From: a virus
IMG/VR virus record: IMGVR_UViG_3300045988_080466
Reading direction: 5' to 3' (one strand)
DNA length: 64,000 nucleotides
The translations under genes and the position numbers were made by a program. Below the pieces are notes generated by a model that had not been told where the DNA came from, searched no databases, and saw only the letters and a list, made by a program, of their open reading frames with translations. Below are positions 30,501 to 47,798 of the stretch, piece by piece (within the stretch, counting starts at the first letter, position 1; each line of letters opens with the position of its first letter).

Positions 30501-33500
30501 GAACTATTGACCAAAGACAAATATACTCTTATGAGTTCTCTGAAAATGCTAACATCATTATCAAAGACGATGGAACTAAGCAGATGACTGCTCTGTTCAT
30601 GCAGGACGACTTATCTATCTTGCAGCATGTTGGAGAATTTAGGTATAATGGAGCAAATGGAGATAACTCCGATGTATCTGATAACAATATTTGGCAAAGA
30701 CTTCAATTACTATTTACCGACTTAGCCAGTATGACTGGTGAAGCTGTTGATAAGTATAGATGGAATGTCCAAACAAAAGGCTACGAAAAAACAGGAGACC
30801 AATATGCAGCCCAACAATCTTGGTCAGCCCTAGCTGATGATTTAACTAATAGGCTAAATATTAGAAATGCTTATTCTTACTATATAGTTTGTATAGCATT
30901 TGGACTTGTGGACTCTCTTGGTAAAAATATGACACTTCGTTCTTGGAACGTTGGAGGAAGCCTTACTGATGAAAATATGAACAAATGGTGGCCTTGTTTT
31001 TACGACATGGATACGGCATTTGGTCTATCTAATACAGGTGAAGAAAATGTACCTAAGACAGCATATCTTGATACCTTTGCTAATGCTAAAGTAGAATCTG
31101 GAGTTAACTCTCTGGTAATTACTCAAAATTCAGCAGACGGAGGATATGATACATACTCTGCAAGATTATGGGATGTTCTTAGAGACACAAGATTTATAAA
31201 TACAGGGGTTTATTCAGGAGCAGGATATGATGCTTTATGGGAAACTTGGCGTTCAGTAGGAACACTTCTTAAAGAAGCTAACTACTTCGTTGATAACTAT
31301 TTCAGCATCCAAATGAAGAACTGTGGTGAGCTTCTATATAATTATGACTACAAAGTTAAGTATTTAACTAGATATTCAAAGGATGAAGGTAGTGCCGCTT
31401 CTTATGCTAATATTGAGTTCTTACATGGACCTCGTGTTGAATTTGTAAGAGACTGGCTAAAGAAAAGATACTACTTTATGGATGGTGTGTTCCAATATTC
31501 AAATAGTGCACTCATCCAGCCATATAATGAAAAGGGTGCTTTTAAATGTGGTGGTGCGGAAGGACAAGCTCCTACACTCACAGTAAAATCTAACTGCCCG
31601 TTAATCTTTACGGTAAACATTGGACAGACATCTGCGGGAGATATTAGATATTTTATTGATGAGAATATCCCAACAACTATTACTCTATCACCTATATCTT
31701 CTTTTAATACGCAGATTACTATTAATGGTATTTCTCAAATCAGTCAGCTTGACGGATTGAAATATATGAGATTCCAAGGATTTATGTCTACATTGAGACT
31801 GCCAAGTTTTGCAAATGTAGATATATCAGGAGTAAAGACATTGTCAAGTGCTCCAATTCTATTTGAAACAGCATTTATTAATGACCAAGATTTCTCTGAT
31901 GTAAGACATATTGACCTTAGTAATACATCCTTCTGGTCTGGAAACAGTGGTGTAAGTACATTTACAGTAAACATTGAAAAGTATACGAAACTAAAAGATT
32001 TGAATATCTCTGGTTCTTGTGTAACTTCTCTATCTTTACCAAATGCTTCACTTGCTTCCCTTAATATTACTAACTCAGATGTAGAAAAGATTACATTACA
32101 GTCTCAACCATTCTTGAGTTCTATCGACTTTACAGGATGTAAGAAATTAAAAACTGTAATTATTGATTCTTGTACTAAGATAGAATCACTTACTCTATCA
32201 AGTTTAAGTGACTTGGATTCTGTAACCATTACAGGATGTCCTAATTTGAAATCTATTGTTTGTACTAACAATACTGCGCTATCAGTATTTAATGTATCTA
32301 ACTCTAACAATGTAGAAACAATAAACCTATCTAATTGTAATAGTAGGTCTCTACAAATATATATTGTAGGTGCGGCTAAGATTAAAACACTAAATCTTTC
32401 TGGAACTACAACTCCAGAGCCAATTCAGTTAGCACAAGGTCTGAACACAATTACTTCTTTAGACATTAGTAATAGTTCTGTATCTGCTTTCCAATTTGGT
32501 AATGACCCTATCCCTACTTATAAAGGTGATAATATCTTAGATTTAAGTCCATTTAATCTTACTTCATTATCTTTAAGAAATGCAGGTTTAGTTAAATACA
32601 TTAAATTTGATAATAATAAAACTAAGCCATTTACTGTTGGTAATTCTTTCTTCGTTGGATGTTCTTCTCTTATAAGAGTATTCGGACATTTGGCACTTAG
32701 TGGGCAGAGTATATTTAGTAACTGTAACAAGTTCTTTATACATGACATGCCAGATACTATTCCGACTCCAATGATTAGTCCTACTGAATGGTTCGGCCCA
32801 GATACGAGCACAGAAGATGGAAAAACTCAATGGAAAGCTAACACAAATCTAGATACAAACTTTACTATCTCAACCACTGCTTTAAACAGTGTGTTTAGTA
32901 CTACTGCTTGTACTCTATATGATGTGTATTATATACTTAATAGATGTCAGAATGTTACAAGTTTGAATGGTACGTTTGTTGCTTGTAGACAAGTTACTAC
33001 TTCAGTTCCTAACTCTTTTAACAGAAATATGTTCAAGTACTGCGGTAAAGTAACAACCATAGATAGCTTATTCTGGGATTGTGGAGACTTAACTAGTATA
33101 TATTTTAGCCCTACACATGATGACGATGGAAACATTACAGCATACGATGGACTGTTCTCACCGCTTGTGAGTTGTACTAATATGAACAACTCATTCCAAG
33201 CAGGCGGTCAGAAGTATATGGATGAATATCTATTTGCCCCAGTAAATGCAAATGGAGATACTCTAAAACTAACTTCAATCAGTTGGGCTATCTACCACGA
33301 GACATTTATTAAAAATGCTAGTGCTCCTAAAGAAGAAATTTTAAGTTCTGATTATATATATGCCAAGGCAAGTAAGCTGTTAAAATATTTGCCAGAACTT
33401 AACAATATAGGTTATCTGTATGCAAGTACTTATTCTAAAATTGAGTTTGATTTAGATACATATACAGAGAATGGAAAGACAGCTTCATACTGTCCTCTAT

Positions 33501-35598: not shown

Positions 35599-35862
35599 AT
35601 GTACGGATACGGAAAAGTAGCAAACAGAGAAGGAAAAATATCTTCTGTCCAAGTAAGTATCTTGCAGAATGTTCCTGCCGGAGATTTCTTCCCCGGTGTG
35701 ATATTTCTGATAAAGAATATTACTGATGATAATATAACAGCAGAGATTAGACCTGCAGGACAGGACAATTTCATAGAAACAGTACTATATCCCGGATGGA
35801 ACCCTGAGATGTGTGAAGAAATAAGAGACGCAGAAGAAGGAACATTACAATATGGGTACTAA
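35599..35862 (+). CDS. hypothetical small protein
   Basis: ORF track. Lies between the two giant genes and overlaps the next by 11 nt. Confidence 0.55.
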   Translation: MYGYGKVANREGKISSVQVSILQNVPAGDFFPGVIFLIKNITDDNITAEIRPAGQDNFIETVLYPGWNPEMCEEIRDAEEGTLQYGY

Positions 35863-38800
35863 TATTACTGGTATTGGTAATGCCAATGCCATAGGATTTA
35901 AGTCTAGAGTTACAGGTGGGGCATACTTCCCACCTGAACTTAAAGACGCTCTTGTAGGGGTGTGGTCAGCCTACGGTAAATCGAATGATAGTACTGACCG
36001 TAACATTATCAAGAATAAAATAAAAGATAAAGGCGGAGACTTTGAGCTGCTAAACTTTAACTACAAAGAAGGAAGTGGATATGGTAAGTATGGGACTGAT
36101 TTTCTAAATTGGAATGTTGAAACTTCATCAGTTACTGCATCTTCAAATAAGATAGAAGTCATTAAAGAAAGTAATATGTACAAGATGTACCGTTATTCAA
36201 GTATGACTAAAAATCTTCCCTCCTTTAAGGTAAAAATATCTAATCTGCAAAAAGGATATATAAGATACTATTATCGCAAGCAAACCGGAATCGAAGCATA
36301 TATTGATTTCCACCAAAATGGAATATATGAATTACCCGCATCCTATAAAGTAGATGAAGGAGGAACAGGAACAAATGGAGGATTTAACTCAAACGCAGCC
36401 GTCCTAAATGTGGGGGTGACTATTGAACAAATCCCAGAGTTTAAAGGAGCTGTTGTTACTGACGGAATTGATGATTTAATTATTTCCACAAAAACTGCGA
36501 CAGAGATGGGCATTACTAATGAGGTCACAGTGGTTAGTATGATTCACCAAATAGGAGGTATTAATTCTTCAGCTGTAAATTATGGTTACACTAATTATTT
36601 TAGAGGCATAAATCATAGTACATTAAGAAACAATGCAACAGGATTAAATAAAACTGGTATCTATGGTTATTCTGCAACTAATTATACTCCTACTATAATC
36701 AATAATATATTAGGGGACAAGAATGATTATACAACCAACAGTGCCGGATTTTCACAATCAACGTATAATAATGTTTTTAGTGTAGAAGGATATAAAGTAT
36801 CTAGTATGATTGCCGAAACTAGTCAAGTTGCTTGGTACTGGACATTTATAGCTAACAAAGTTCTTACAGAGGATGAAATTAATCTTGTTATCGAGAAATA
36901 TAACCTTGATAGACCTGGGGAAATAGTTACACCTCAAGTTTATTACAACATAAAGAAACAGAAGATTTCTAATGATAATCACTCTGCATTTGATGATAAA
37001 CTAATTGACTATTCTGGAAATGGTTATGATGCTAAGTTGTATAACTTTGGCTGGAAAGAAGATAGTGGAATTGGGAAATATGAAACTGATTTTACTGATT
37101 GGAAAAAGAGTTTTAAAGTAACATCTTTTGATAGTGAATCTATTAAGTTTACTAGCGATGTTTCTTGGGTATTACTGTATCATCCATCTAGTATTGGAGA
37201 AGATATTCCCTCTTTCAAAGTTCGTATAAAACTTTATGGAAAAGGCACTTTATATTATAACTATATAACTCAAGAAGGGAAATACACTAATGTAGCTGTA
37301 AAATCAGAGATTTTTGAAACACCGATTTGTTATAACACAAAATATACAGGTGAAAAGGGAGTAAACGTTGGATTTACTCTTGGCGTTATCTCTGGTGAAT
37401 GTAGTGGTACTATTACACAAATTCCAGAGTATGAAAATGCATTAGTATTAGATGGTGTAGACGATTATGGAAAAGTAACAGGACTTCCTATTTTAAAGGA
37501 TTATACCTTTTTGGTAGATAGACAAATAATAAATATTGGCGATGTGCAAAGAATAGTTGCTTCTAAATCTGAAAGTGCAACGGATACAGCTAAGCAAGGA
37601 GCATTTCTATTTGAATATTTAAGTAAAAATTCCATTAGTACTTGGAGCTATTATGAAAATAATCCTCTAGTAGCTAATGCTGACTTTAATAGGGATATAA
37701 GCTATCAATCAAAATATATTTACAATGGTAAAGAATTAACAATTGGAGGAGCTGGAGATAGTGATAAATTATGGCTAGGAACAATTCGAGATAATGATTC
37801 TCGTTTCTTTAATGGAGCTATTTATCTTCTTATGCTATTCCCTTACTCTATGAGTGAGTTCTTAATAGAAAGACAAATAGAGAAAGTAAAAGGAGGAACA
37901 TTATATCCTAATCAAGTTGAGTTTAGACCTATAATTCCAGAGGATGAAAACATTACTAAAATTGATTATTTTGTTGTTAATTCTGGTACATGGACAGTAA
38001 TTAAACCTGGAGACTATGTAGACGTAGGAGCTAGGATTGTTCTTAATGTATATACAAAACTTCCTTATAAAATAGCGGGAGCATCTTCAACAGCTTTTAC
38101 TGGTATGACTGTCGGACCTTCAACAGCATTAAATATATGGGATGTTAAGGGTTATATAAAGGATAAGACTCCACAGAAAATCAAATTGACTCTTGCAGTT
38201 AATGAAGATATTGTTCAATGGAATCCTACAATTTCAGCTAATATTCCAGACTCTTACGATGCAGTAACAGAATGGTTTGCCAATGGTTGGGAGACTAAGA
38301 TTGCTGTAGGTGATTGGATTAAAAAGTCTGATAGAATATTCTTTAAATTAAAACTTAAAGAACCTCTACATGAAATAGGTAAAGTTACATTTGGTGGTTC
38401 TGAATGTCAGGCTACTAAAGCAAGTAATTGGTCAGAATCTAATAATCTATGGGAGATTGTAACATATTCTTCTGTTGGAGATTTATCGCAAGTATTTAAT
38501 GTACAAGTAGACGAGTACATCAGATACGAGGACATTGTACAGCCTTATCCAATTCTATTGAGATTCAATGATGAAAACGGTAATGGAGTATCTTGGGGAG
38601 GAAAGTTCAGAGTTGGTTCTACTATTACTAGAATAGGTAGTATTGCTGACCCTGAAAGCAATCTATTAAATGGTTTATATTCTATTTCAGGATTGTCTTT
38701 AAATGGTAAAGCTGTTACTAGTAGTACTAGTATCGTTGAAAAGCAAATGGTATTTAAAACTACTGCAACTTATCTTTTTGATAATAATGAACCTAAATGT

Positions 38801-41800
38801 ATTCTTTCTCCTAGACTATTGAGAATACCTAACTCTAGTTACAAGATTCTAAGACACATTCCCGATATATCCGGTCATGGTAATCATGGAGTTATTCATA
38901 ACTCGGCTTATGCAGGAATGAGTGGAGCGAATGGATATGGAACTAATCTAGGTAATTGGAGTATTAATAGTGCTAATACTGGTAAGATAATAACTCAAAG
39001 AGAAGAATATTTAGAATATGAAGTATTAAGTGCAGATAAGAATATATTATTTTATAATACAAAAATAAAAAATGATACATTTGTAATATATACTAGTGTT
39101 AGTACTAATATTGTATATTCAAAAGAATCTGATATTATTGCTAATATTCCTGCTAATACTCCTACTAAAGTAGTTTGTCCTAAAATTGGTACTATTCTGT
39201 TAAAAACAAATGAAACACCTACTGTTGGAAATATAATTACTGTTAAACAAGATGGAATATATGAAGGAGCATACTGTTTCGATGGCGTAGATGACTTTGT
39301 TATTATTCCTACTACGGTCGGTGGTAAGCAGGTGTTGATGAAGGTGAATTGGCAAAGTGATGTGGGAGCTGTGACACTATACGACCAAAGGCTTAATCTA
39401 TCTGATTATGAATTTGCTATCTATAACGGTAATAGAGACCTTGATGACAATCCTATTATGGCTTATCAGGGAAGAAACAATGGGCAAACATACATTGATG
39501 GAATCTTGAATAGTAATATTAAGGCTTCGGAATTGAAGGCTATTACTCATAATATAACTATTACAAATGAGTTAAGTTTGGGAACAAATAATACCTATCC
39601 TGTTATTGGTTCAACTAGGTCGAATACTCACTTCGCTCAAATGTCTCTCTATGACTTCATGCTCTTCGATGAAATCTCAACAGAAGCTAAGATTAAAGAG
39701 CTGAACGAGTATGTAGGAATAGAAGGAAATGTATTCGAGTTTAATCCTACGTTTACAATAGACCTTCCTATGGCAATTAAGTCTATAAAGGTATATCAAG
39801 GAGGAAATGAAATAAGTCCAGGTTATCTATATCCTAATAAAGATACTGAGTTTGAAGTATATGTATCGCTTAATGATGGTAAATATGCTGTTGATACTAT
39901 TACAGTAGACGGTGTAGAAATCACTAAGGATAGAGTAGTTGGAGAATATAACATATTTAAGTTTACTCTTAATGGTTCTTCTGAACAGAAGATTACAATC
40001 CATTCCTATGAATATATAATGTATGAGGATATTATACAGCCGTATCCAAGTTTTGTTAAGTTAGAAAATCTAGATAGAACTCATACTTATACTTGGGGAG
40101 ATAAACTAAGAATAGGAGATACTATTAGGTATAATTCTTCTAAAAATTTACTGGAGGGAGCTTATACTTTAAGGGGTCAACTAGAGTGTAACGGTGTATA
40201 TGTATTCGATAATAACCAACAAATCGTTGTTACTAAGGAGATGGTATTTGCTTGGTCACATAGTCCCGTTTGGACTATTGGGAACAGTGCTCCTAAATGT
40301 GTATTCTCTCCAAGTAAGTTAAGGATTCCAAATTCTAGCTACAAGTACTTAGGTTATATACCTGATATTTCTGGAAATGGAAACAATGGAACATTTACTA
40401 ACTTTGCTTTCTCTGGTATGTCTGGAGCTAACGGATATCTAGAAGATTTTACTATCATGAAAGACCATGGTACTAGTGGCATAGTTCGCACCGAGAGTAA
40501 GATATATCTTAATGAGTCGTTTAATTATAAAGAGGGATTTTGGCTAGGATATACAAACAATCCTTCCCCTGCTTATAAAGTTAAAGTATCTGGAATACCC
40601 GAAACTGGTATGCTTACATATACAGGAGGTATTTGGTTAAATCTAGTAAATGGAATAAACGAATTGCCTGCAAGAACAAATACTGCAGAAAATCACGGTT
40701 TTGTGGTTCAATCTCCAGGCCTAGACTGGTCAAAATTAGTTATTGAACAAATAGGAAACTATGAAGGTTCTATATGTTTTGACGGAATTGATGATTATGT
40801 AGATATTCCTTCCTTATCAATAGGAGGAAAGCAGGTATTAATGAAGACAAACTGGTTAAAATCTCCTACGTTATTGTATGACCAGAGAGCGTCGGGAAGC
40901 TTTGCTATTCTTACAACTAAGGAGGATGACGCAACTAATCCAAGAATAGCGTACCAAGCACGTAATCAAGATGGCAAGACTTACATAGATGGGATAGAGA
41001 ATAATTATATTGAAACTTACTCTCTAAAAGGTATAACACATAATATTACAGTGACAAACCCTTCGGCAGGAAGTGGAGTAGTACCTGTAATAGGTGCCAA
41101 TACTGGTAAGTCAAGCGGTTTTGCCAAAATGGCTCTTTATGATTTCATGTTGTTTGACGAGGTAAGTACTAACGAAGAAATAAAGCAACTCAATGATATA
41201 GTAGGAATTGAGGGAAATTATGTACAAAGACCTCCTTACTATTGGGACGCTTATGGCAAGACTAACTCTGATGAAGATAGGAGTACTATTCAACAAAGAG
41301 GAACAGCAGTAGGAGACTATGATTTAACTAATCATAATCATGCTTACGATAAAATGTCAGGTTATGGAGGTTATAATTTAGGTAGATTTGATAAGTCTTG
41401 GGCTAGTTCTAGTTCTTCTAATACTAGTATTAAAGTTGTTCAACGAAATCCTTATGATATTACTTTAAAGAAGTTAGGAGGAAATAGTGATTGGGAATTT
41501 AATAACACAGAATTAAAAATTATATCTAATCCTGTATCTGTTAAATTTAAATCTGATAAAAATATAAGATTTACGTGCGATTATCATTATTATCCTGTTG
41601 GAGAAAATAGTGAAGGTATTCCTTTAAGAATAACTTCTAAAGACTTAATTGCTAATGAAGATACCATTATCACAATTTCACCAATTAGTCAAGAGAATAT
41701 AGATAAATATAATATTGATGTAAATAGAGGATACTATCTTATTTATTTTCAATTATCATCTACTCTTGCAGTTAACGAAGAAGTAACTATCGAAATGCTT

Positions 41801-42334
41801 CCTCTTTATCCTAATGCTTTATTATATGATGGAGTAGATGATTATTCAGAAAACACTAGTATTCCGGCATTTACTGATTATACTTATATCATTAAGTATG
41901 AGGATTTTAATAATCCAAATACTGGAAGTTGTATTCAAAGAAAAGGCAGCATTAAGGCAGGTGGAGGAGCATTTGTTCAAGACCATATCTATAGAGGTAC
42001 AAAATATCAATATAATTTTGGAATTAGTAGCAATATTCATAAAGATGATTCCATCGCATTTTGTACTAGAACAAATTATAATGGCACTGCAATTCCGTCT
42101 GGAAACAATACTGATGATACAGGTTTTACTATCGGAAAATTCGATGGATATCGTAAAATGGTATTTTATAAAGAAATGTTGTATCCTAGGACCGTTAATA
42201 TGCTAACCATTAATATGATAAAGAATATGATGGCGGAAGATGGAATAATAGATATACAAGGTAAATTATTTACTGATAAATTTACAGGAGATTTTAATTT
42301 AGACTTTAATAAAGACTTTTTAATAGGTAACTAA
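35852..42334 (+). CDS. giant (2160 aa) tail fibre with five LamG/ConA-like modules and a ~400-aa internal duplication
   Basis: Five occurrences of the module anchor DG(I/V)DD (DGIDDLII, DGVDDYGKV, DGVDDFVII, DGIDDYVDI, DGVDDYSEN). Module-end motif (S/A)LYDFMLFDE(I/V)ST..(I/K)K(E/Q)LN..VGIEGN occurs twice. Confidence 0.7.
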   Translation: MGTNITGIGNANAIGFKSRVTGGAYFPPELKDALVGVWSAYGKSNDSTDRNIIKNKIKDKGGDFELLNFNYKEGSGYGKYGTDFLNWNVETSSVTASSNKIEVIKESNMYKMYRYSSMTKNLPSFKVKISNLQKGYIRYYYRKQTGIEAYIDFHQNGIYELPASYKVDEGGTGTNGGFNSNAAVLNVGVTIEQIPEFKGAVVTDGIDDLIISTKTATEMGITNEVTVVSMIHQIGGINSSAVNYGYTNYFRGINHSTLRNNATGLNKTGIYGYSATNYTPTIINNILGDKNDYTTNSAGFSQSTYNNVFSVEGYKVSSMIAETSQVAWYWTFIANKVLTEDEINLVIEKYNLDRPGEIVTPQVYYNIKKQKISNDNHSAFDDKLIDYSGNGYDAKLYNFGWKEDSGIGKYETDFTDWKKSFKVTSFDSESIKFTSDVSWVLLYHPSSIGEDIPSFKVRIKLYGKGTLYYNYITQEGKYTNVAVKSEIFETPICYNTKYTGEKGVNVGFTLGVISGECSGTITQIPEYENALVLDGVDDYGKVTGLPILKDYTFLVDRQIINIGDVQRIVASKSESATDTAKQGAFLFEYLSKNSISTWSYYENNPLVANADFNRDISYQSKYIYNGKELTIGGAGDSDKLWLGTIRDNDSRFFNGAIYLLMLFPYSMSEFLIERQIEKVKGGTLYPNQVEFRPIIPEDENITKIDYFVVNSGTWTVIKPGDYVDVGARIVLNVYTKLPYKIAGASSTAFTGMTVGPSTALNIWDVKGYIKDKTPQKIKLTLAVNEDIVQWNPTISANIPDSYDAVTEWFANGWETKIAVGDWIKKSDRIFFKLKLKEPLHEIGKVTFGGSECQATKASNWSESNNLWEIVTYSSVGDLSQVFNVQVDEYIRYEDIVQPYPILLRFNDENGNGVSWGGKFRVGSTITRIGSIADPESNLLNGLYSISGLSLNGKAVTSSTSIVEKQMVFKTTATYLFDNNEPKCILSPRLLRIPNSSYKILRHIPDISGHGNHGVIHNSAYAGMSGANGYGTNLGNWSINSANTGKIITQREEYLEYEVLSADKNILFYNTKIKNDTFVIYTSVSTNIVYSKESDIIANIPANTPTKVVCPKIGTILLKTNETPTVGNIITVKQDGIYEGAYCFDGVDDFVIIPTTVGGKQVLMKVNWQSDVGAVTLYDQRLNLSDYEFAIYNGNRDLDDNPIMAYQGRNNGQTYIDGILNSNIKASELKAITHNITITNELSLGTNNTYPVIGSTRSNTHFAQMSLYDFMLFDEISTEAKIKELNEYVGIEGNVFEFNPTFTIDLPMAIKSIKVYQGGNEISPGYLYPNKDTEFEVYVSLNDGKYAVDTITVDGVEITKDRVVGEYNIFKFTLNGSSEQKITIHSYEYIMYEDIIQPYPSFVKLENLDRTHTYTWGDKLRIGDTIRYNSSKNLLEGAYTLRGQLECNGVYVFDNNQQIVVTKEMVFAWSHSPVWTIGNSAPKCVFSPSKLRIPNSSYKYLGYIPDISGNGNNGTFTNFAFSGMSGANGYLEDFTIMKDHGTSGIVRTESKIYLNESFNYKEGFWLGYTNNPSPAYKVKVSGIPETGMLTYTGGIWLNLVNGINELPARTNTAENHGFVVQSPGLDWSKLVIEQIGNYEGSICFDGIDDYVDIPSLSIGGKQVLMKTNWLKSPTLLYDQRASGSFAILTTKEDDATNPRIAYQARNQDGKTYIDGIENNYIETYSLKGITHNITVTNPSAGSGVVPVIGANTGKSSGFAKMALYDFMLFDEVSTNEEIKQLNDIVGIEGNYVQRPPYYWDAYGKTNSDEDRSTIQQRGTAVGDYDLTNHNHAYDKMSGYGGYNLGRFDKSWASSSSSNTSIKVVQRNPYDITLKKLGGNSDWEFNNTELKIISNPVSVKFKSDKNIRFTCDYHYYPVGENSEGIPLRITSKDLIANEDTIITISPISQENIDKYNIDVNRGYYLIYFQLSSTLAVNEEVTIEMLPLYPNALLYDGVDDYSENTSIPAFTDYTYIIKYEDFNNPNTGSCIQRKGSIKAGGGAFVQDHIYRGTKYQYNFGISSNIHKDDSIAFCTRTNYNGTAIPSGNNTDDTGFTIGKFDGYRKMVFYKEMLYPRTVNMLTINMIKNMMAEDGIIDIQGKLFTDKFTGDFNLDFNKDFLIGN
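38516..39730 (+). repeat. intragenic duplicated module, copy A
   Basis: YIRYEDIVQPYP ... PKCILSPRLLRIPNSSYKILRHIPDISGHGNHG ... CFDGVDDFVIIPTTVGGKQVLMKVNW ... LYDFMLFDEISTEAKIKELNEYVGIEGN. Confidence 0.75.
40013..41218 (+). repeat. intragenic duplicated module, copy B
   Basis: YIMYEDIIQPYP ... PKCVFSPSKLRIPNSSYKYLGYIPDISGNGNNG ... CFDGIDDYVDIPSLSIGGKQVLMKTNW ... LYDFMLFDEVSTNEEIKQLNDIVGIEGN. Collinear with copy A at a 1497-nt period. Confidence 0.75.
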
Positions 42335-42336
42335 CA

Positions 42337-44364
42337 ATGGCAAATTGGAGTAATTTAAAAACAGCAATATCAAATGTTGTTAAAAGTAACGGAATCCAAG
42401 GGATTACCGGAGATTCACTACAATCTGTAATGTTAAATATGGTTACAAAACTAGGAGAGAATTATATGTTTGCAGGGGTAGCTACCCCTGCTACAACTCC
42501 TGGGACTCCAGATGGTAATGTATTCTATATTACTACACAAGCTGGAACTTATGCCAACTTTAATAATACAGTAGTGGCAGATGGAGAACTAGCAATTCTT
42601 ATGTGGAATGGTGCTTGGACAAAACAGAGTATGGCAATAGCCACTCAAGCAAAGATGGAAGAAATTGACCAACATGTAACGGAAGTTGATGCTAAACTTA
42701 ATGAAATGCAAAAAGGTATGGAAGATGTATATGCCTATGGAGTCGAATGGGATTCTACTGTGGCAGACCCTACTCTCACAAGAATTGGGAATCTTACTCT
42801 TCATAAATCGTTACCTATTCAGTCTCAATTAAAAGGCTGCGTAGCTAACGGAGGAGTAATCAATTATTATCTTCATCCAGATGATTGGTCAAAGAAAGAA
42901 GATGGCACACCATCAGTATTAGATGGAACTGACGGAACTGTCAGAGTTAAAGTACCTCGATTCTGGGGAAAATCTGGAGTTGTAGGAACAAAAAGATGGG
43001 TTAAGATTTCTACTGTATGTATTGATGATACTTGGACAGAGATTCCAGCAATGTTAATAGATGCATATAGGTCTACAACAGATAACACTGTAACAGCAAC
43101 ACCTAAGTTGGTATCAGTTGTGAATACTACTGCTGCATTTAGAGGTGGAGGAAATAGAACAGCTTATGATACTTATTTAGAAACAGACCCAGTAAGAACA
43201 GATTTAGGAAAACCAAGAACAGCAATGACTAGAGCAGTTGCACGTACTTGGGCAACAAACGCGGGTTCAGAACTACTGAACTACGAATACTACAAATGGA
43301 TAATGTTTTGGTTACCTGTGATTGAGTACGCTACATTTAATATGCAAGCTAACTTCAATTCAGATTTAACTTCCGAAGGATTTCATCAAGGAGGATTAAG
43401 CGCAGGTGTAACAAACATGTCAAATTGGGAGTTTTACAATGGAAATTATTCAGTATGTCCTTGCGGATATGCCAATGAATTAGGAAATTTTACAGGAGCT
43501 AAGGTTATTCCTCAAGCTGATTGGGTTTATGAATCCACAGGTTTAACTAATATGGCTTCTTATTCAAGAGATACTGCTCAAGCAGATATGACAGCAGAAA
43601 CAAATAAAGTCACAATTACAAACGTTAAAGGTACTAATAGATATATGTATAGAACTTGGGGTTACCAAAATGGAGAAACCGTTTATACTATATCAGGATT
43701 AGCAGAGGGACAAGATGTAATATTCTATGTAGGAGGTACAACAGTAGCAACAGCTACAGCCGATGGAGATATTACAGTAAATTGGCCTACAAACAATCTG
43801 GGAGATAGATGCATTAAATCATCTTTTACTGGAAGTTGTAATATTGTGATTTCTATTAAGAGTGCATCTAACGTAAATGTAACAGTTAGCCGTCCAGCTA
43901 TGAGTATTGCAAGATATAGAGGATTTGAAAATATCTTTGGAGACCTGTGGACAAATATGGAAGGCATAATTATACAAGGTTATACAGACGAAGGAACAAG
44001 CACTTATAACTGGAAAAATGTATATACAACTACTAATCCAGAAAATTATGGAGAAACAGAAACTCAAAAAGCTAAAATGAAATTAATCTCTAGTAGAGAA
44101 ATTCATGCAGATGGATATACTAAGGATTTTGACCTCCAAACAACAGGAGAAATAGTACCATGTGCTGTTGGTGGTGGAAGTACTACCTATATGTGCGACT
44201 ATCATTACACTGGTAATAAAGACGCAAGTCTAAGGACACTCTTGCTTGGCGGCCGCGCTGATTCTGGCGGTGCTTCCGGCCCTGGTTGCTTCTATTCTGG
44301 TGTTGGGGTCGGCCTTTCCAGCGCCGCTGTGGGTTTCCGTACTCTAAATAAAATTGAAAAATAA
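42337..44364 (+). CDS. DGR target protein: fibre-like receptor-binding candidate with C-terminal variable region
   Basis: 675 aa, 2 nt after the giant fibre gene. The last 42 codons contain the VR. C-terminus ...GGRADSGGASGPGCFYSGVGVGLSSAAVGFRTLNKIEK ends with the GFR typical of C-type-lectin/FGE-fold DGR targets. Confidence 0.8.
   Translation: MANWSNLKTAISNVVKSNGIQGITGDSLQSVMLNMVTKLGENYMFAGVATPATTPGTPDGNVFYITTQAGTYANFNNTVVADGELAILMWNGAWTKQSMAIATQAKMEEIDQHVTEVDAKLNEMQKGMEDVYAYGVEWDSTVADPTLTRIGNLTLHKSLPIQSQLKGCVANGGVINYYLHPDDWSKKEDGTPSVLDGTDGTVRVKVPRFWGKSGVVGTKRWVKISTVCIDDTWTEIPAMLIDAYRSTTDNTVTATPKLVSVVNTTAAFRGGGNRTAYDTYLETDPVRTDLGKPRTAMTRAVARTWATNAGSELLNYEYYKWIMFWLPVIEYATFNMQANFNSDLTSEGFHQGGLSAGVTNMSNWEFYNGNYSVCPCGYANELGNFTGAKVIPQADWVYESTGLTNMASYSRDTAQADMTAETNKVTITNVKGTNRYMYRTWGYQNGETVYTISGLAEGQDVIFYVGGTTVATATADGDITVNWPTNNLGDRCIKSSFTGSCNIVISIKSASNVNVTVSRPAMSIARYRGFENIFGDLWTNMEGIIIQGYTDEGTSTYNWKNVYTTTNPENYGETETQKAKMKLISSREIHADGYTKDFDLQTTGEIVPCAVGGGSTTYMCDYHYTGNKDASLRTLLLGGRADSGGASGPGCFYSGVGVGLSSAAVGFRTLNKIEK
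44239..44337 (+). repeat. DGR variable repeat (VR)
   Basis: 99 nt aligning without gaps to 44451-44549. There are 28 differences, all opposite template adenines. It is a local GC spike (ggcggccgcgctg...). Confidence 0.9.
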
Positions 44365-44450
44365 TTTCTCATAACATATAACAGATAGGGCACTATTTAC
44401 CTTTTTTACCGGGTTGCAAGGGCAGCGAAAGTTTACTGTGAAAAACAAAA

Positions 44451-44549
44451 CTCTTACTTAGCAGCAACGCTAATAATGGCAGTAATTCCAGCCCTAGTTA
44501 CTTCAATTCTAATAATGGAGTCAGCAATTCCAGCACCAATGTAGGTTTA
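44451..44549 (+). repeat. DGR template repeat (TR), non-coding
   Basis: Intergenic, between the target and the RT. 31 adenines, of which 28 are substituted in VR. Reads as 9 AAY codons in the target frame. The 5' boundary is uncertain (A-rich 44441-44450). Confidence 0.9.
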
Positions 44550-44694
44550 TTATATATTTTGATTTTGATAATTTTGTTTTTATTATTTTGTCTAAATAGT
44601 GTCCTTGCCTCTTGGCAAAAAATAACGTAGTATTTAATATAACTGGTGTTAGTAGGTTAATTCTCGAACACTCCTTGCATAAATATATAAGACT

Positions 44695-45939
44695 TTGAAA
44701 AGAATAGGATATTTGCATGAGCAGGTATGTAGCCTGTCTAATATAGAACTTGCTGATAGAAAAGCAAGAAGACACAAATCAGTCAGATGGGGAATCCTGA
44801 AACACGATAAGCATCATGAGAGGGAAAATGAAAAGTTGGCAACCGTTTTGAAGAACTTGACATATCACACTTCAAAATATAGCACGTTTAAAATCTATGA
44901 GCCTAAGGAGAGATTAATCTTTAGGCTTCCATATTATCCTGATAGAATTACGCATCATGCGATAATGAATATAACAGAACCGATATGGGTAAATATATTT
45001 ATCAAACATACATATTCTTGTATAAAAGACAGAGGAATACATGATGTTGCAAAAGACTTAAAGTACGTTTTGCAAAAATATCCAGAAGAAACTAAGTATT
45101 GTTTGAAAATTGATGTGAAGAAATTTTATCCGTCTATTAACCATGACATACTGTACGAAATACTCCAAAAGAAAATAAAAGACCCTAAATTGTTGAGTCT
45201 ACTAAAGGAGATAATATATTCGGCAGACGGAGTACCCATTGGAAACTATTTGTCTCAATTCTTTGCAAATTTATATCTTGCTTATTTTGACCATTGGGTC
45301 AAAGAAGAGCTTAAATGTAAATTCTATTTCAGATATGCAGATGATATAGTAGTATTAAGTGACAATAAAGAATTTTTGAGAACAGTTCTATTGTCAATGA
45401 AATTATATCTGCGAAATGTCTTAAAATTAGAACTTAAACAAAATTATCAAATTTTTCCCGTAAACAGTAGAGGAATAGACTTTGTAGGTTACAAGTTTTT
45501 CCATACTCATGTACTGCTCAGAAAATCTATCAAAGTTAGATTATTCAAGTTAATTAAAGGGTACAAGGATAAGAAAATTGATAGAAACGAGCTAAGAAGG
45601 AGAATGCAATCGTATTTTGGATGGTTAAAGTTCTGTAATTCTAAAAATCTACTCCATAAAATTCAGTTAGAGACTGGATTGAGATTTTCTAACTGGAATG
45701 GGAAGAAGGTAAATATTTCAAGATTCTATGGTAAGTATATTCATATAGTTGACATCATATTGTATAGTAATAGATCCAGAGTCAACTTTGTATATAATTA
45801 TAAGTCATATTATTTTGAGAGTAAGAATAAACGATTGCTTTATTCTATACGTAGATATTCATTACCTGTAAATTTTAAAATAACACCATATGTTAGACCC
45901 AAGAAGAATAGAAGCAAACCTGCAACCCGAACCGATTGA
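44695..45939 (+). CDS. DGR reverse transcriptase
   Basis: KIDVKKFYPSINHD (motif A), GVPIGNYLSQFFANLYL (DGR-type IGxxxSQ motif B), FRYADDIVVL (YADD at about 45334-45345). TTG start per the ORF track. About 100 aa of extra C-terminal sequence. Confidence 0.9.
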   Translation: MKRIGYLHEQVCSLSNIELADRKARRHKSVRWGILKHDKHHERENEKLATVLKNLTYHTSKYSTFKIYEPKERLIFRLPYYPDRITHHAIMNITEPIWVNIFIKHTYSCIKDRGIHDVAKDLKYVLQKYPEETKYCLKIDVKKFYPSINHDILYEILQKKIKDPKLLSLLKEIIYSADGVPIGNYLSQFFANLYLAYFDHWVKEELKCKFYFRYADDIVVLSDNKEFLRTVLLSMKLYLRNVLKLELKQNYQIFPVNSRGIDFVGYKFFHTHVLLRKSIKVRLFKLIKGYKDKKIDRNELRRRMQSYFGWLKFCNSKNLLHKIQLETGLRFSNWNGKKVNISRFYGKYIHIVDIILYSNRSRVNFVYNYKSYYFESKNKRLLYSIRRYSLPVNFKITPYVRPKKNRSKPATRTD

Positions 45940-46264
45940 ATTGCTTGGAAATGGTACATATTACTATAACTATGATATTAAATCAGAAATAGTATACGTT
46001 CCTCACATGGACGGAAGTACAACGGAAGAAATTAGATGGAATTACATTCAGATACATTTAAGTGGAACACCAGAATATAAGGCATGTGCTAGAGCTATTA
46101 TTAGACAATATATTGATGAAGAATCAGAGTTCTCCATAATTAATGACTTTAATGCACACCAATTAGGAATTAGAAAAGATGAAAAAGCATACTCTGAATA
46201 CATAGAGTATATTAATTTAGTTTCAGAAATCAAATCAAAAATTAAGTCGGACTTTAATAAATAA
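45890..46264 (+). CDS. hypothetical acidic protein
   Basis: ORF track. Overlaps the RT 3' end by 50 nt, so the true start may be the internal Met (MDGSTTEE). Confidence 0.5.
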   Translation: MLDPRRIEANLQPEPIELLGNGTYYYNYDIKSEIVYVPHMDGSTTEEIRWNYIQIHLSGTPEYKACARAIIRQYIDEESEFSIINDFNAHQLGIRKDEKAYSEYIEYINLVSEIKSKIKSDFNK

Positions 46265-46268
46265 AATT

Positions 46269-46673
46269 ATGGATTACGCAATTGTAACAAAAGAATGGAT
46301 GACACAACGTGGTTTAATCATAGAACCACACATGAGAACAAGTGTAGATAACAACAAAGTAGTATTACACAAATCGTGGCTAAGACCTTTCTTAGAAGAT
46401 GAAGGTATTGAGCTTTACTATCATGACGACCCTGCTTTTATAGCACTATTAGCATCTGCAGAATGGACATCTCCTGAGGGAGAAATCGAACCTGTGTCTA
46501 TGGGAGAAGGAACAAAAGAAAGTCCTTACACATATGATGGAGTAATGTCTTTAGTAAAGGGTAACTATTACTCACAAGATGGAGTTACATATCTATGTAC
46601 AAGAAGTCTTTATGAAGAAAACAGCACTGCTCTTAAAGATTTAATAGGAATGTATGTAAAGGAAGCTGCCTAA
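46269..46673 (+). CDS. hypothetical protein
   Basis: ORF track. Followed by a long terminator hairpin. Confidence 0.6.
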   Translation: MDYAIVTKEWMTQRGLIIEPHMRTSVDNNKVVLHKSWLRPFLEDEGIELYYHDDPAFIALLASAEWTSPEGEIEPVSMGEGTKESPYTYDGVMSLVKGNYYSQDGVTYLCTRSLYEENSTALKDLIGMYVKEAA

Positions 46674-46703
46674 ATGGCATCTTTCTCATTTGAAAAATAA
46701 TTT

Positions 46704-46776
46704 TTAACACTCGTAGCTAAATTACAAGAATTTTTAAAGAAATTTAATAATTTAGTTGCGAGTGTTAATTTTTATT
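46704..46776 (+). terminator. long-stem intrinsic terminator
   Basis: 21-nt arms ttaacactcgtagctaaatta (46704-46724) and taatttagttgcgagtgttaa (46748-46768) with 2 mismatches, followed by a T-run. Confidence 0.6.
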
Positions 46777-46778
46777 TA

Positions 46779-46913: not shown

Positions 46914-47798
46914 ATGGCAGAGTTTTTAACAATGGAAGATGCCGAAAACAAATTCGGTACGAAAGGGAGAACAAATGCGGGCCTAACCCTAGGTATTATT
47001 GGTACAGCACTAGCTGCACTTGGTAATAACGGAGGAGGCTGTGGAAACAACGGTGGTATTTTAGGTGGACTCTTCGGAGGAAACAATGGCTCTTGTTGCG
47101 CTATGCAACAAGCAGAACAGGCTAAAACGTTAGCAATGGTTCAAGGACAACAGGCAGATAATTTATCTTGGGCAAATAGAGTACAATCTATGCAAGACGA
47201 CATCAACCTATATACTTACATCAATGCGGCTGATACAGGACTTCGTAATCAAAACTACGAAGGAAGAATCACCGACCAGGGAGAAAAATGTAATATGTAT
47301 ATAGACCTTATAACAAGAGACAACGCACAGAATCTGAGATTGTGTGATGAACTCTATAAGAGAAGAGAACAAGATGTCCAAGAAAAGTCTGATTTGTTCG
47401 CAAGATTAAGTACTAGAATCAGTGATTTAGAGAAGAAAGAAGCTGCTACATCAGCTGCATTACCTCTAATGTTCGAACTTGCAAAAGAAAAGTCAGAAAG
47501 ATATTCTGATGCTTGCTGCTGCAAGAGCGAAAAAGATTTACTTAAAACTGCTAGTGCTCTTCAAACTGAAGGTATGGCTGTAGCTAACAACTTACAAAGA
47601 CAACTTGACCATAAAATTACTGGAGAATTAAAATATTCTTATAGTAACTTATGTGCTCCTGTTCCTAGTATAGCTCCTCTTTATTGTAGTCCGTTTACGC
47701 AATATGGTACAGGCATGTACGCTGGTACAGCTGCTTCTAACTGGAACGCAGTGAATACAGCTATTAATGGAGCTTGTCCTTCTTGCCAAGCACAATAA
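46914..47798 (+). CDS. hypothetical membrane-anchored Gly/Cys-rich coiled-coil protein
   Basis: N-terminal LTLGIIGTALAALG hydrophobic segment, then GNNGGGCGNNGGILGGLFGGNNGSCC. Central coiled coil. Cys clusters (ACCCK, CAPVPS..YCSP, CPSCQ). Has its own promoter and terminator. Confidence 0.65.
   Translation: MAEFLTMEDAENKFGTKGRTNAGLTLGIIGTALAALGNNGGGCGNNGGILGGLFGGNNGSCCAMQQAEQAKTLAMVQGQQADNLSWANRVQSMQDDINLYTYINAADTGLRNQNYEGRITDQGEKCNMYIDLITRDNAQNLRLCDELYKRREQDVQEKSDLFARLSTRISDLEKKEAATSAALPLMFELAKEKSERYSDACCCKSEKDLLKTASALQTEGMAVANNLQRQLDHKITGELKYSYSNLCAPVPSIAPLYCSPFTQYGTGMYAGTAASNWNAVNTAINGACPSCQAQ

Follow-up and report, generated by a model that had tools for sequence, protein, structure and literature searches.

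Roughly one in four known DGRs lacks an Avd gene, and crAss-like phages and Hankyphage, which carry such systems, are among the most abundant phage groups of the human gut. For crAss-like phages, the order target gene (TG)–variable repeat (VR)–template repeat (TR)–RT without avd is the published norm (PMC7290462). The RT of crAssphage LMMB was assigned by its authors to lineage 3 (PMC7290462), a lineage from which avd is absent according to Wu et al. (PMC5758913). The locus described here belongs to a 64-kb stretch of viral DNA, referred to below as the window, and is an active-type DGR of a large crAss-like gut phage. It shares with LMMB (Morozova et al. 2020) the TG-VR-TR-RT order, the lack of avd and an RT with 55% identity along its entire length, including the tail; the RNA elements P1 and P2, with compensatory changes, are also common to LMMB and the crAss-like DGRs. 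LMMB differs in its target, a 486-aa tail-collar fibre instead of a 675-aa tail protein, in the ATG rather than TTG start of its RT, and in having no acidic gene downstream. RTs of 414 aa, as found here, have been reported in zeta crAss-like phages (2025 paper). In contrast to the present analysis, publications on crAss-like DGRs describe the C-terminus of these enzymes merely as a variable thumb.

The DGR of Bordetella phage BPP-1 resembles the window locus in the fold and motifs of the RT core (identity 32%, Foldseek E 1.4e-21), in the adenine-specific changes from TR to VR, and in a VR that lies 3'-terminally in a gene of the tail-fibre type. The order of elements in the Bordetella Sp RNA is similar too: a long-range duplex around the TR comes first, then a short hairpin and adenosines, and a single-stranded stretch leads to a 3' stem-loop. 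In contrast to BPP-1, the window has no Avd gene, no Avd-binding stem-loop and no GC-rich IMH or hairpin after the VR, and its RT carries what is predicted to be an extra C-terminal OB-like domain. Hankyphage (Bacteroides phage p00) is similarly organised as VR-TR-RT without a true Avd, and its 434-aa RT has a clear phrog_19665-type domain (residues ~338-421) after the thumb, although its RT core is just 31% identical to that of the window.

The best explanation of the window locus, to which we assign a probability of about 0.7, is a DGR of an Avd-less branch, the RT of which consists of a bRT-like core (residues 1 to ~324) fused to a phrog_19665-type domain, called X below. It is this identity of the tail that seems to be new.

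Repeats and target gene

The TR (44450..44548, + strand) and the VR (44238..44336, +) form a direct repeat of 99 nt, the differences of which are confined to template adenines, as in other DGRs. All 27 mismatches are observed at TR adenines, 27 of the 31 TR A being changed, and 24 of the 27 changes affect codon positions 1 or 2. The VR corresponds to the final 43 codons of the target gene (42337..44364, +), which codes for a 675-aa tail protein with the VR at its C-terminus and matches phrog_5302 'tail protein' (E 5.9e-81). A lectin fold has been reported for zeta crAss-like DGR targets (zeta crAss-like phage paper, 2025). The closest relative, L003, has a TR identical to that of the window at 89 of 99 positions, and its own VR differs from its own TR at 23 positions, all of them TR adenines. 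Ongoing mutagenic retrohoming may be indicated indirectly by a relative whose RT is 89% identical: its VR has an A-only pattern of its own, and between the two loci the VRs differ at more positions (19) than the TRs (10). The similarity of the repeats ends at 44336/44548, as abruptly as the preliminary description of this locus had stated. Its failure to find an IMH or hairpin after the VR was reproduced: the search for inverted repeats and terminator-like hairpins downstream of the VR returned none, and no GC-rich IMH was found there.

Cassette layout and absence of Avd

The target stop (44364) and the RT start are separated by 330 nt, and the longest ORF inside this gap, on the minus strand, is 84 aa long, which agrees with the earlier statement that the gap has no ORF of Avd size. 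The Avd search proposed for the neighbourhood gave no match to Avd or to other Pfam families, HRDC and MSL included, in the neighbouring ORFs or among the 33 small ORFs of the window, and no Avd was detected in sister loci, where 52 neighbouring ORFs were covered. The cassette thus contains no basic four-helix-bundle protein of ~110-130 aa (PF05635), and X itself is beta-rich. The gene order target-TR-RT without avd, HRDC or MSL matches the core order of lineage 3 / architecture A1 (Wu et al. 2018). The compact architecture had been singled out as noteworthy; it is in fact already published, as the norm of crAss-like phages (PMC7290462) and of lineage 3 (PMC5758913), and is hence not unique to the window.

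Reverse transcriptase core

The RT ORF (44695-45939, +) encodes 414 aa from a TTG start. Its stop-to-stop segment opens at 44683, with four non-start codons ahead of this TTG, which takes the position of the ATG in relatives of the LMMB type and is shared as TTG by some 20 related loci. The TTG start, together with the motifs PIGNYLSQ (45238-45258) and YADD (45334-45345), was correctly recognised from the start, and the RT is placed in the DGR class by IGxxxSQ, YxDD, a bRT-like fold and RVT_1 (E 7.6e-18). The core (residues 1-324; 44695..45666, +) comprises an N-terminal extension, fingers, palm and thumb, as delimited by RVT_1, by phrog_1423 (E 1.9e-113, residues 1-349) and by Foldseek, for which the best PDB match is Bordetella bRT (8ub7_A, with the values given above). 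The 328 aa of bRT (PDB 8ub7) are aligned over 335 columns, which is about the length of the core (residues 1 to ~324).

A similar boundary is obtained from sister systems. The 49 related RTs that are 54-59% identical to that of the window align with it over residues 1 to ~324 only; their ORFs are 316-361 aa long and most end at or just past the NSKNLL motif. The window RT extends 93 residues past ...NSKNLL (residue 321), so the extension of about 100 aa beyond the thumb is real.

The C-terminal domain

The X domain (residues ~328-397; 45676..45885, +), located from AF2, hhalign and Foldseek, has a predicted beta-alpha-beta-beta-beta-alpha-beta order and an OB-like topology. Averaged over 10-residue blocks, the AF2 pLDDT ranges from 79 to 92 for residues 321-400; it falls below 50 for residues 404-414. 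These belong to the basic C-terminal end PYVRPKKNRSKPATRTD, which together with the stop codon (45886..45939, +; AF2 and ORF list) overlaps the next gene. According to the predicted structure, the tail folds with good confidence into an OB-like beta-barrel, a domain separate and distinct from the thumb; four of the five OB strands are present in the window tail, the last strand of the family being missing. The tail is as basic as had been described (pI 10.5). It is kept in all of the best 120 homologues and in 31 crAss-clade loci, and from these sequences is common to the whole crAss RT clade, not unique to the window. The preliminary description had conceded that the extension could be a normal part of the thumb in its clade: it is indeed normal in the crAss RT clade, but the structure prediction gives a folded domain and not thumb.

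The OB-like label derives from the topology and from PDB Foldseek matches of the family model to OB-containing proteins (E 0.12-0.7); the weak matches include phage SSBs and the OB domains of RPA, HIN and RuvBL. Since Foldseek of phrog_19665 against the PDB gave nothing below E 0.1, 'OB-like' is used as a label only. Together with the basic charge, this topology and the weak OB/SSB matches suggest that the tail may bind nucleic acids. No family was found in Pfam, NCBIfam, PADLOC or PDB sequences for the tail, for phrog_19665 or for the downstream gene product. Five tail-only matches in a set of 5.8 billion proteins were considered as free-standing homologues and rejected: they are short fragments starting at an internal RT Met, i.e., split or deleted gene calls.

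Proposed relationship to phrog_19665

The phrog_19665 family comprises proteins of ~100 aa without a Pfam entry. Profile comparison of the tail with this family by hhalign gave E 2.6e-4 and P 7.7e-4 over 71 columns. The score of 25.1 compares with 10.4 ± 2 in 400 column shuffles, the maximum of which was 21.2, so that none of the 400 reached it; the hhalign probability is 25-42% and the sequence identity 14-16%. HMM-to-sequence matches between tail and family (E 0.4-6) are sub-significant singly, and are reciprocal and in one register. The family was not reported by hmmscan of the RT against PHROGs, and BLAST with the tail only gave nothing significant against the X domains of Hankyphage, ANMV-1 and L127, which lie outside the crAss clade; BLAST alignments of the window RT with fused RTs reach ~30 residues into X.

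Predicted structures point in the same direction. Secondary-structure order and lengths agree between RT residues 337-395 and residues 19-94 of the family model, with a common order strand-turn-beta1-beta2-beta3-helix-beta4. The two top Foldseek matches of the family model in BFVD are RTs (E 3.5e-7 and 1.4e-4), and its Foldseek match to the cr7_1 crAss RT (BFVD) has TMq 0.58 and an rmsd of 2.6 Å over 80 columns (E 0.01). A relationship between the tail and phrog_19665 is therefore proposed from profile, predicted fold and position together, no single test being decisive.

The distribution of the two is strictly complementary. A phrog_19665 gene stands beside the RT in 49 of 49 tail-less viral loci and in none of 31 tail-bearing ones. 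In a search that started from the family, the RT overlapped the phrog_19665 gene by at least 8 nt in all three prophage contexts. Among 59 loci of GTDB genomes, the RT ORF ends within 60 nt of the gene in 46, and the RT is upstream or fused in 10 more (56/59 in all). The gene also follows the RT in Bacteroidota prophages, and lies 3 nt after it in the archaeal virus ANMV-1. In these split systems (the 49 IMG/VR phage loci, the Bacteroidota prophages and ANMV-1), unlike in the window, the partner is a separate gene, found 2-8 nt after the RT or overlapping it, between VR and TR, or one gene downstream; the likeness lies in the RT core (54-59% identical), the common RT-17-like spacer elements and the absence of Avd. 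Fusions are observed as well. In Hankyphage the phrog_19665 domain is fused in frame (RT residues 338-421), and in-frame RT-phrog_19665 fusions in three bacterial loci have kept the initiator Met of the partner. The Hankyphage X is full length and readily recognised, whereas in the window X has diverged much further and the last strand is missing.

As far as gene neighbourhoods and sequence comparison go, every member of this RT branch has a phrog_19665 module, either next to the RT as a gene of its own or joined to it. The separate gene, set against the RT in sister DGRs, can be read as an obligate RT partner of the lineage. Linkage, complementary distribution and fusions thus indicate that the tail is a fused, lineage-specific RT partner, likely a stand-in for Avd. 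The suggestion made earlier, that the tail might substitute for an accessory nucleic-acid-binding factor, fares well as regards a fused RT partner; nucleic-acid binding by the tail is suggested by topology, charge and the weak OB/SSB matches.

Spacer RNA

A 12-bp duplex, P1, encloses the TR. Its 5' arm GGGCACTATTTA (44388..44399, +), upstream of the TR, pairs with the 3' arm TAAATAGTGTCC (44593..44604, +), as indicated by covariation. Both sides have changed in 9 of the 12 pairs across 15 crAss-clade loci; 90.6% of the cells are paired, compared to 40-56% in slid controls, and none of 500 shuffles reached the observed values. A cross-locus control within the crAss clade also supports P1. By a simple helix search it did not rise above the cross-locus background in tail-less relatives, so P1 is claimed for the crAss clade only. 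The hairpin P2 (TTGCC-TCTT-GGCAA; 44605..44618, +) abuts P1; in the 15 loci all its positions are paired (100%) and one pair covaries from G-C to A-U, and it is kept in tail-less relatives too, with loop insertions in some. In the MAFFT alignment, L001 and L026 are off by one column and L057 is misplaced; these rows were left as 'unpaired', which makes the counts conservative.

The TR is joined to the P1 3' arm by an A/U-rich linker (44549..44592, +; from sequence and fold), in which weak A-U pairing was seen and no G+C-containing stem-loop, whereas the Bordetella RNA has its Avd-binding stem-loop at this place (Handa et al.). P2 is followed by AAAAUAACGUAG (44619-44630, +). The disposition known from Bordetella as 'cPRT Stop', a duplex of sequences on either side of the TR, a neighbouring stem-loop and then adenosines, can be recognised here in the 12-bp P1, the abutting P2 and the AAAA that follows. 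Folding of the TR-spacer RNA, as had been advised, yielded a mixed answer: the stability of the 44365-44700 fold does not exceed that of shuffled sequences (z -0.21), so the structural claim relies on the covariation of the P1 duplex and P2 hairpin and not on energy.

P2, an A-rich strand and a GUGUUAGUAGG...CGAA element make up an RT-17-like spacer RNA (44601..44695, +). It matches the full model (1-95) of RF03020 (RT-17) with 29 bits and E 0.001, below the gathering score of 40.4, and it is thus best called RT-17-like from its sequence, not a certified RT-17 member. Rfam RT-17/RT-18 (RF03020, RF03021) similarly have CCUUGCC-loop-GGCAAAA ... UGGUAG ... CGAA directly upstream of RT genes; unlike the window, the RT-17 model has no long-range duplex enclosing the TR.

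Proposed mechanism and alternative explanations

The DGR would rewrite the C-terminal, receptor-binding tip of the tail protein. In the proposed scheme, the transcript would fold so that the P1 arms 44388-44399 and 44593-44604 pair and the TR becomes the enclosed loop, and P2, the A-run and the RT-17-like 3' element would dock on the RT, by analogy with the 'cPRT Stop', thumb ring and RT-binding stem-loop of Bordetella. X, tethered to the thumb, may hold single-stranded RNA or nascent cDNA, the grapple role played elsewhere by the Avd pentamer. The cDNA would be cis-primed from the spacer, with adenines miscopied, and would then replace the VR. On a slightly better than even estimate, X/phrog_19665 is a fifth, unrecognised class of DGR accessory, an OB-like nucleic-acid-binding module replacing Avd in the Avd-less branch.

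The same OB-like topology of the family model, with its weak Foldseek matches to phage SSBs and to RPA, HIN and RuvBL OB domains, could also fit a partner acting after reverse transcription, which, as an SSB-like binder of single-stranded DNA, would shield the cDNA or bring it to the VR. To our knowledge, no dedicated factor has been described for the cDNA-integration step of DGRs, which counts in favour of such a role. We nevertheless consider it unlikely: the overlap of the partner gene with the RT stop and its repeated fusion at the thumb end speak for an action inside the RT-RNA particle at a 1:1 ratio; a lineage with neither Avd nor the Avd-binding stem-loop needs some factor to fill that role; and every SSB/OB match from Foldseek has an E of at least 0.02. 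It is also conceivable that the tail is a clade-specific thumb decoration without accessory function, its likeness to phrog_19665 being convergent or due to chance. About 20% of DGR RTs have motif-less C-terminal extensions (Wu et al., PMC5758913), the zeta crAss-like phage paper reads the differences as thumb variability, and the sequence identity of tail and family is just 14-16%. This is hard to reconcile with a bRT that stops where the tail starts, a tail predicted to fold as its own domain, a profile score reached by none of the shuffled controls, a perfectly complementary distribution (49/49 vs 0/31), and clear phrog_19665 fusions, placed alike, in Hankyphage and three bacterial loci; we regard it as very improbable.

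A further alternative concerns the acidic gene downstream of the RT. This gene, famY (45890..46264, +; 124 aa, pI 4.9), overlaps the RT by 50 nt and matches phrog_11557 (E 5.1e-13). It had been named as an ORF that might turn out to be an Avd or another accessory homologue; it is no Avd, but it is a conserved, RT-linked gene, following the RT in 54 of 82 loci (28/33 tail-bearing, 26/49 tail-less), so the cassette may not be free of accessory genes. From this linkage, famY is a candidate second accessory gene. Could it be the true accessory, alone or with X? In crAss-like phages and in unrelated ones it lies directly after the RT, the stop codon of which it often overlaps, and its pI is comparable to that of the CH1 class (pI 4.7, 160-169 aa), found only in avd-less DGRs (Wu et al., PMC5758913), to which it may correspond. 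On the other hand, 23 tail-less loci and the LMMB-type crAss phages lack it although their DGRs are complete, its members have 120-139 aa rather than the 160-169 aa of CH1, and no fusion with an RT was seen. A primary role of famY is thus a tentative, minority possibility. Finally, an ordinary Avd might be encoded elsewhere and act in trans, given that the window covers 64 kb of a genome of probably 140-190 kb and that the zeta crAss-like phages Lera and ct1yV3 carry avd beside a different RT type. Such an Avd is most improbable, however, considering that none occurs among the 33 small window ORFs, that searches of whole genomes with avd-less DGRs by Wu et al. found no avd (PMC5758913), and that no Avd-binding stem-loop follows the TR.

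Implications and broader comparison

If X does replace Avd, the same module would serve crAss-like phages and Hankyphage in fused form and the archaeal virus ANMV-1 as well. A fused helper would suggest how many Avd-less retroelements may function, and a candidate for the missing partner would make the Avd-less DGR question accessible to experiment, Hankyphage being genetically tractable. Annotation would be affected too, since small ORFs near such RTs have been labelled "Avd" from size and charge alone. DGR-based directed-evolution tools currently require bRT plus Avd, and an RT with a built-in helper in one polypeptide would be attractive for this purpose. Beyond DGRs, the group II intron RTs that carry DNA-binding/endonuclease (D/En) domains at their C-terminus differ in that no relationship of X to D/En was found in sequence or fold, and in that the window has no intron RNA or maturase context. 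They are the next-best structural matches after bRT, and share with the window RT a bRT-like core followed, after the thumb, by a domain that handles nucleic acids or, for X, may do so.

The DGR cassette and its phage context

The target of the diversity-generating retroelement (DGR) is a 675-aa tail protein (42337-44364, phrog_5302). In the ORF map, a 330-nt gap separates its stop from the reverse transcriptase (RT) ORF, which spans 44695-45939 and encodes 414 aa. The variable repeat (VR, 44238-44336, within the last 43 codons of the target) and the template repeat (TR, 44450-44548, in the gap) form a 99-nt direct repeat. All 27 mismatches fall at adenines of the downstream copy, TR, and 27 of the 31 TR adenines differ from VR. 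The RT ORF matches Pfam RVT_1 and the phage RT family phrog_1423, and the best solved-structure match of its AlphaFold2 model (mean pLDDT 85) is the Bordetella phage enzyme bRT (8ub7_A, 328 aa; 32% identity, E 1.4e-21). The cassette is a DGR, and the RT coordinates and motifs (PIGNYLSQ, YADD) of the preliminary description are correct. The TTG start of the RT at 44695 is also borne out: no other start codon lies between the preceding stop (segment from 44683) and the conserved N-terminus MKRIGYL; ATG occupies this position in LMMB-type relatives, and TTG is kept in about 20 related loci.

At both the DNA and the protein level, the region groups with crAss-like phages, including CrAssphage LMMB and cr7_1. 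Related IMG/VR contigs span 97-187 kb, and Pfam CrAss_Ring families are found elsewhere in the window. The claimed absence of an Avd accessory gene stands: the longest ORF in the gap is 84 aa, and Pfam detected nothing Avd-like in the two ORFs downstream of the RT, in 33 small ORFs of the window (64 kb) or in 52 neighbour ORFs from related loci. A target-VR-TR-RT order without avd was described for crAssphage LMMB, whose RT was placed in "lineage 3" (PMC7290462). Wu et al. reported lineage 3 without avd, as well as unexplained C-terminal extensions on about 20% of DGR RTs (PMC5758913), and 414-aa RTs are listed for zeta crAss-like phages in a 2025 publication, where differences in length are put down to variability of the thumb (PMC12386605). 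In view of these earlier publications, the compact Avd-less architecture is real and already known.

The RT tail is an added domain

The RT runs 93 residues beyond the ...NSKNLL motif (residue 321), in line with the extension of about 100 aa first noticed. This tail is not a peculiarity of the present RT, since it is found in all top-120 homologues (58-89% identical, mostly 395-430 aa) and in the LMMB RT. It is confidently folded in the AlphaFold2 model (mean pLDDT 79-92 per 10-residue block, residues 321-400), with strand 337-338, helix 341-344, strands 348-356, 361-367 and 370-376, helix 379-386 and strand 392-395, followed by a basic, disordered C-terminal end. The reading of this extension as a longer thumb is contradicted by 49 phage RTs (54-59% identical) which match the window RT over residues 1-~324 only; their ORFs are all 316-361 aa long, and most stop at or shortly past the NSKNLL motif. 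The tail has therefore been added to a bRT-like enzyme that is complete without it.

Two proteins, P0003 and P0005, join the RT N-terminus straight to the tail, with the catalytic core absent; they are either RT deletion derivatives or assembly artefacts. The RT genes of several relatives (L014-L018, L020, L021, L030, L031, L032, L057) contain 3-6 in-frame stops when read with the standard code but can be aligned over their whole length. Stop-codon recoding has been reported in some crAss-like phages, and these stops fit it. This explains the cr7_1 RT annotation of only 319 aa and the tail-only 'proteins' found in databases.

A free-standing partner family in tail-less loci

Loci with tail-less RTs carry, on the RT strand, an ORF family of ~96-140 aa, located 2-8 nt after the RT, between VR and TR, or one gene downstream. 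By six-frame HMM search it is present in 49/49 tail-less versus 0/31 tail-bearing loci, and the window has no free-standing member. This partner family is phrog_19665, which has no relative in Pfam, NCBIfam, PADLOC or PDB. A search with the family by itself gave 1,374 matches (E <= 0.001), the best 120 of which are ~100 aa long, without Pfam domain and mostly unnamed or 'hypothetical'; most of the records that bear a name, here and in the genome scan, are from Bacteroidota. The linkage to the RT is the same whether the search starts from the family or from the RT. When it was begun from the family, the RT overlapped the family gene by at least 8 nt in 3/3 prophage contexts, and in GTDB loci an RT ORF ended at most 60 nt from it in 46 of 59, with 10 more having the RT upstream or fused. 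The archaeal virus ANMV-1 has a 98-aa family ORF (41% identity) beginning 3 nt past its DGR RT.

Fused forms are also observed. In Hankyphage p00, a tblastn query with a family member matches within the annotated RT, and translation reveals a complete copy of the family after the thumb, at RT residues ~338-434 (...KLTGKDMRSFKDLNV...FPFETTIKTE...KYIFT). Three bacterial loci (L127, L128, L145) contain in-frame RT::partner fusions that keep the partner's initiator Met, evidently recent stop-codon losses. In BFVD, the top two structural matches to the family model are likewise RTs (E 3.5e-7 and 1.4e-4).

Small ORFs lie between target and RT in Hankyphage (L083, BK010646.1; 1470-1664) and ANMV-1 (L084; 1678-1872). 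The original papers on these viruses proposed them as 'Avd' by size and charge alone; the conserved RT partner is a distinct gene or domain in each of the two genomes. Tail-less RTs of the L033-L054 type (e.g. L034, L041), whose partner lies one gene downstream, end in ...KTFPYEIKFxRAK. This C-terminus is similar to the crAss tail in its last strand and basic end (...LPVNFKITPYVRPKK) and may be left over from an earlier fusion. Upstream of the RT, 20 tail-less loci within L033-L082 have tandem small genes (~135-156 aa; e.g. L040 119-1010, L045 2029-2885) ending in ...GSRLC-type motifs, which look like multiple small DGR target proteins.

Relationship between the tail and the family

The evidence for homology between the window's tail and phrog_19665 is cumulative. 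Profile-profile comparison aligned 67-71 columns end to end (E 2.6e-4, P 7.7e-4); none of 400 column-shuffled controls reached its score of 25.1 (mean 10.4, sd ~2, maximum 21.2). Reciprocal HMM matches are weak, share a single register and are almost confined to the targets of the other profile. Tail and family model (pLDDT 89) agree in the order of their elements, and in BFVD the model matches the cr7_1 crAss RT, which carries the same tail type as the window (TMq 0.58, rmsd 2.6 Å, 80 columns, E 0.01). BLAST alignments of the window RT with the L127 and Hankyphage fusions run ~30 residues past the junction, where RFSNWNGKKVNISRFYGKYIHIV pairs by eye with KFSELN...GEKIAIKKILNKEISVV; the tail lies at the site of the undisputed fusions. 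Tail and free gene are also distributed in a perfectly complementary manner across tail-bearing and tail-less loci. As evidence against homology, tail-only BLAST and hmmscan gave no significant match to the family, and the family's last strand is absent from the crAss tail. Taken together, we give homology a probability of about 0.9, and the best-supported interpretation of the tail is a lineage-specific RT partner fused onto the RT. Its domain identity and its free-standing and fused relatives are apparently undescribed in the literature searched.

In the family model the elements run beta1-beta2-beta3-helix-beta4-beta5, as they do in an OB fold. The model's PDB matches are all weak (E at least 0.12) and mostly OB-containing (RuvBL domain II, HIN-200, RPA, DUF35), and BFVD returned phage single-stranded-DNA-binding proteins at E ~0.02. 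The tail is basic (pI 10.5 in the window; tails average 9.8, free family proteins 7.9). From these features of model and composition, tail and family can reasonably be predicted to bind nucleic acid.

RNA between target and RT

The preliminary description suggested looking for spacer structure by folding. The folded stability of 44365-44700 is unexceptional (z -0.21), and structure emerged from comparison of loci. A long-range duplex, P1, pairs GGGCACTATTTA (44388-44399), upstream of TR, with TAAATAGTGTCC (44593-44604), downstream of it. Both sides change in 9 of 12 pairs across 15 crAss-clade loci, 90.6% of cells are paired versus 40-56% in slid controls, 0/500 shuffles match, and the 3' arm of each locus pairs best with the upstream region of the same locus. 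A hairpin, P2 (TTGCC-TCTT-GGCAA, 44605-44618), abuts P1 and is followed by AAAAUAACGUAG; it is 100% paired, with one covarying pair. Rfam RT-17 is matched along its entire model by 44601-44695, at 29 bits and so below the 40.4 threshold. Locus L007 was left out of this analysis; where the contig begins, its 5' flank (1-~60 of the region compared) changes sharply to G+C-rich sequence unlike that of a phage, which probably marks a chimeric assembly end.

The Bordetella Sp RNA has its elements in the same order: a long-range duplex around TR, a short hairpin, adenosines, a single strand and a 3' stem-loop. There, the duplex and hairpin together with A-minor adenosines make up the "cPRT Stop", and bRT is held by the 3' stem-loop (bioRxiv 10.1101/2023.10.23.563531). 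In contrast, the Bordetella stem-loop just after TR, which grips Avd, is missing in the window, where 44549-44592 is A/U-rich and unstructured. As initially noted, no GC-rich IMH or hairpin follows VR. Repeat similarity ends at 44336/44548.

The tail had been proposed as a substitute for an accessory factor. This idea is the best-supported reading, in the more precise form of a fused lineage-specific partner in a lineage devoid of both Avd and its RNA handle; the tail may perform Avd's job of holding the RNA, or act on the cDNA. Its domain identity makes an Avd-independent mechanism directly testable.

Neighbouring genes

The acidic 124-aa ORF at 45890-46264, which overlaps the RT end by 50 nt, had been named as a possible Avd or other accessory homologue. 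Pfam detected nothing Avd-like in it; it belongs instead to a conserved RT-following family, phrog_11557, found directly after the RT in 28/33 tail-bearing and 26/49 tail-less loci (54/82), including crAss-like and unrelated smaller phages. Searches of Pfam, NCBIfam, PADLOC and PDB gave nothing that matches the family. The gene could be an additional accessory factor and might represent CH1, an accessory class described by Wu et al.

Further downstream, the gap between ORFs 46269-46673 and 46914-47798 contains a 41-nt imperfect inverted repeat (46695-46777, 76% complementary, with 1 nt between its arms), which may serve in regulation or as a terminator. ORF 46914-47798 (294 aa), without family match, has a Gly/Asn-rich, Cys-containing N-terminal stretch (GGGCGNNGGILGGLFGGNNGSCC). 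Upstream of the target, a 2160-aa ORF (35852-42334) has two long repeated internal modules (e.g. ...LRIPNSSYK.L..IPDISG.GN.G...MSGANGY...) and is preceded by a 2661-aa ORF (27593-35578); both presumably encode giant tail-fibre proteins.
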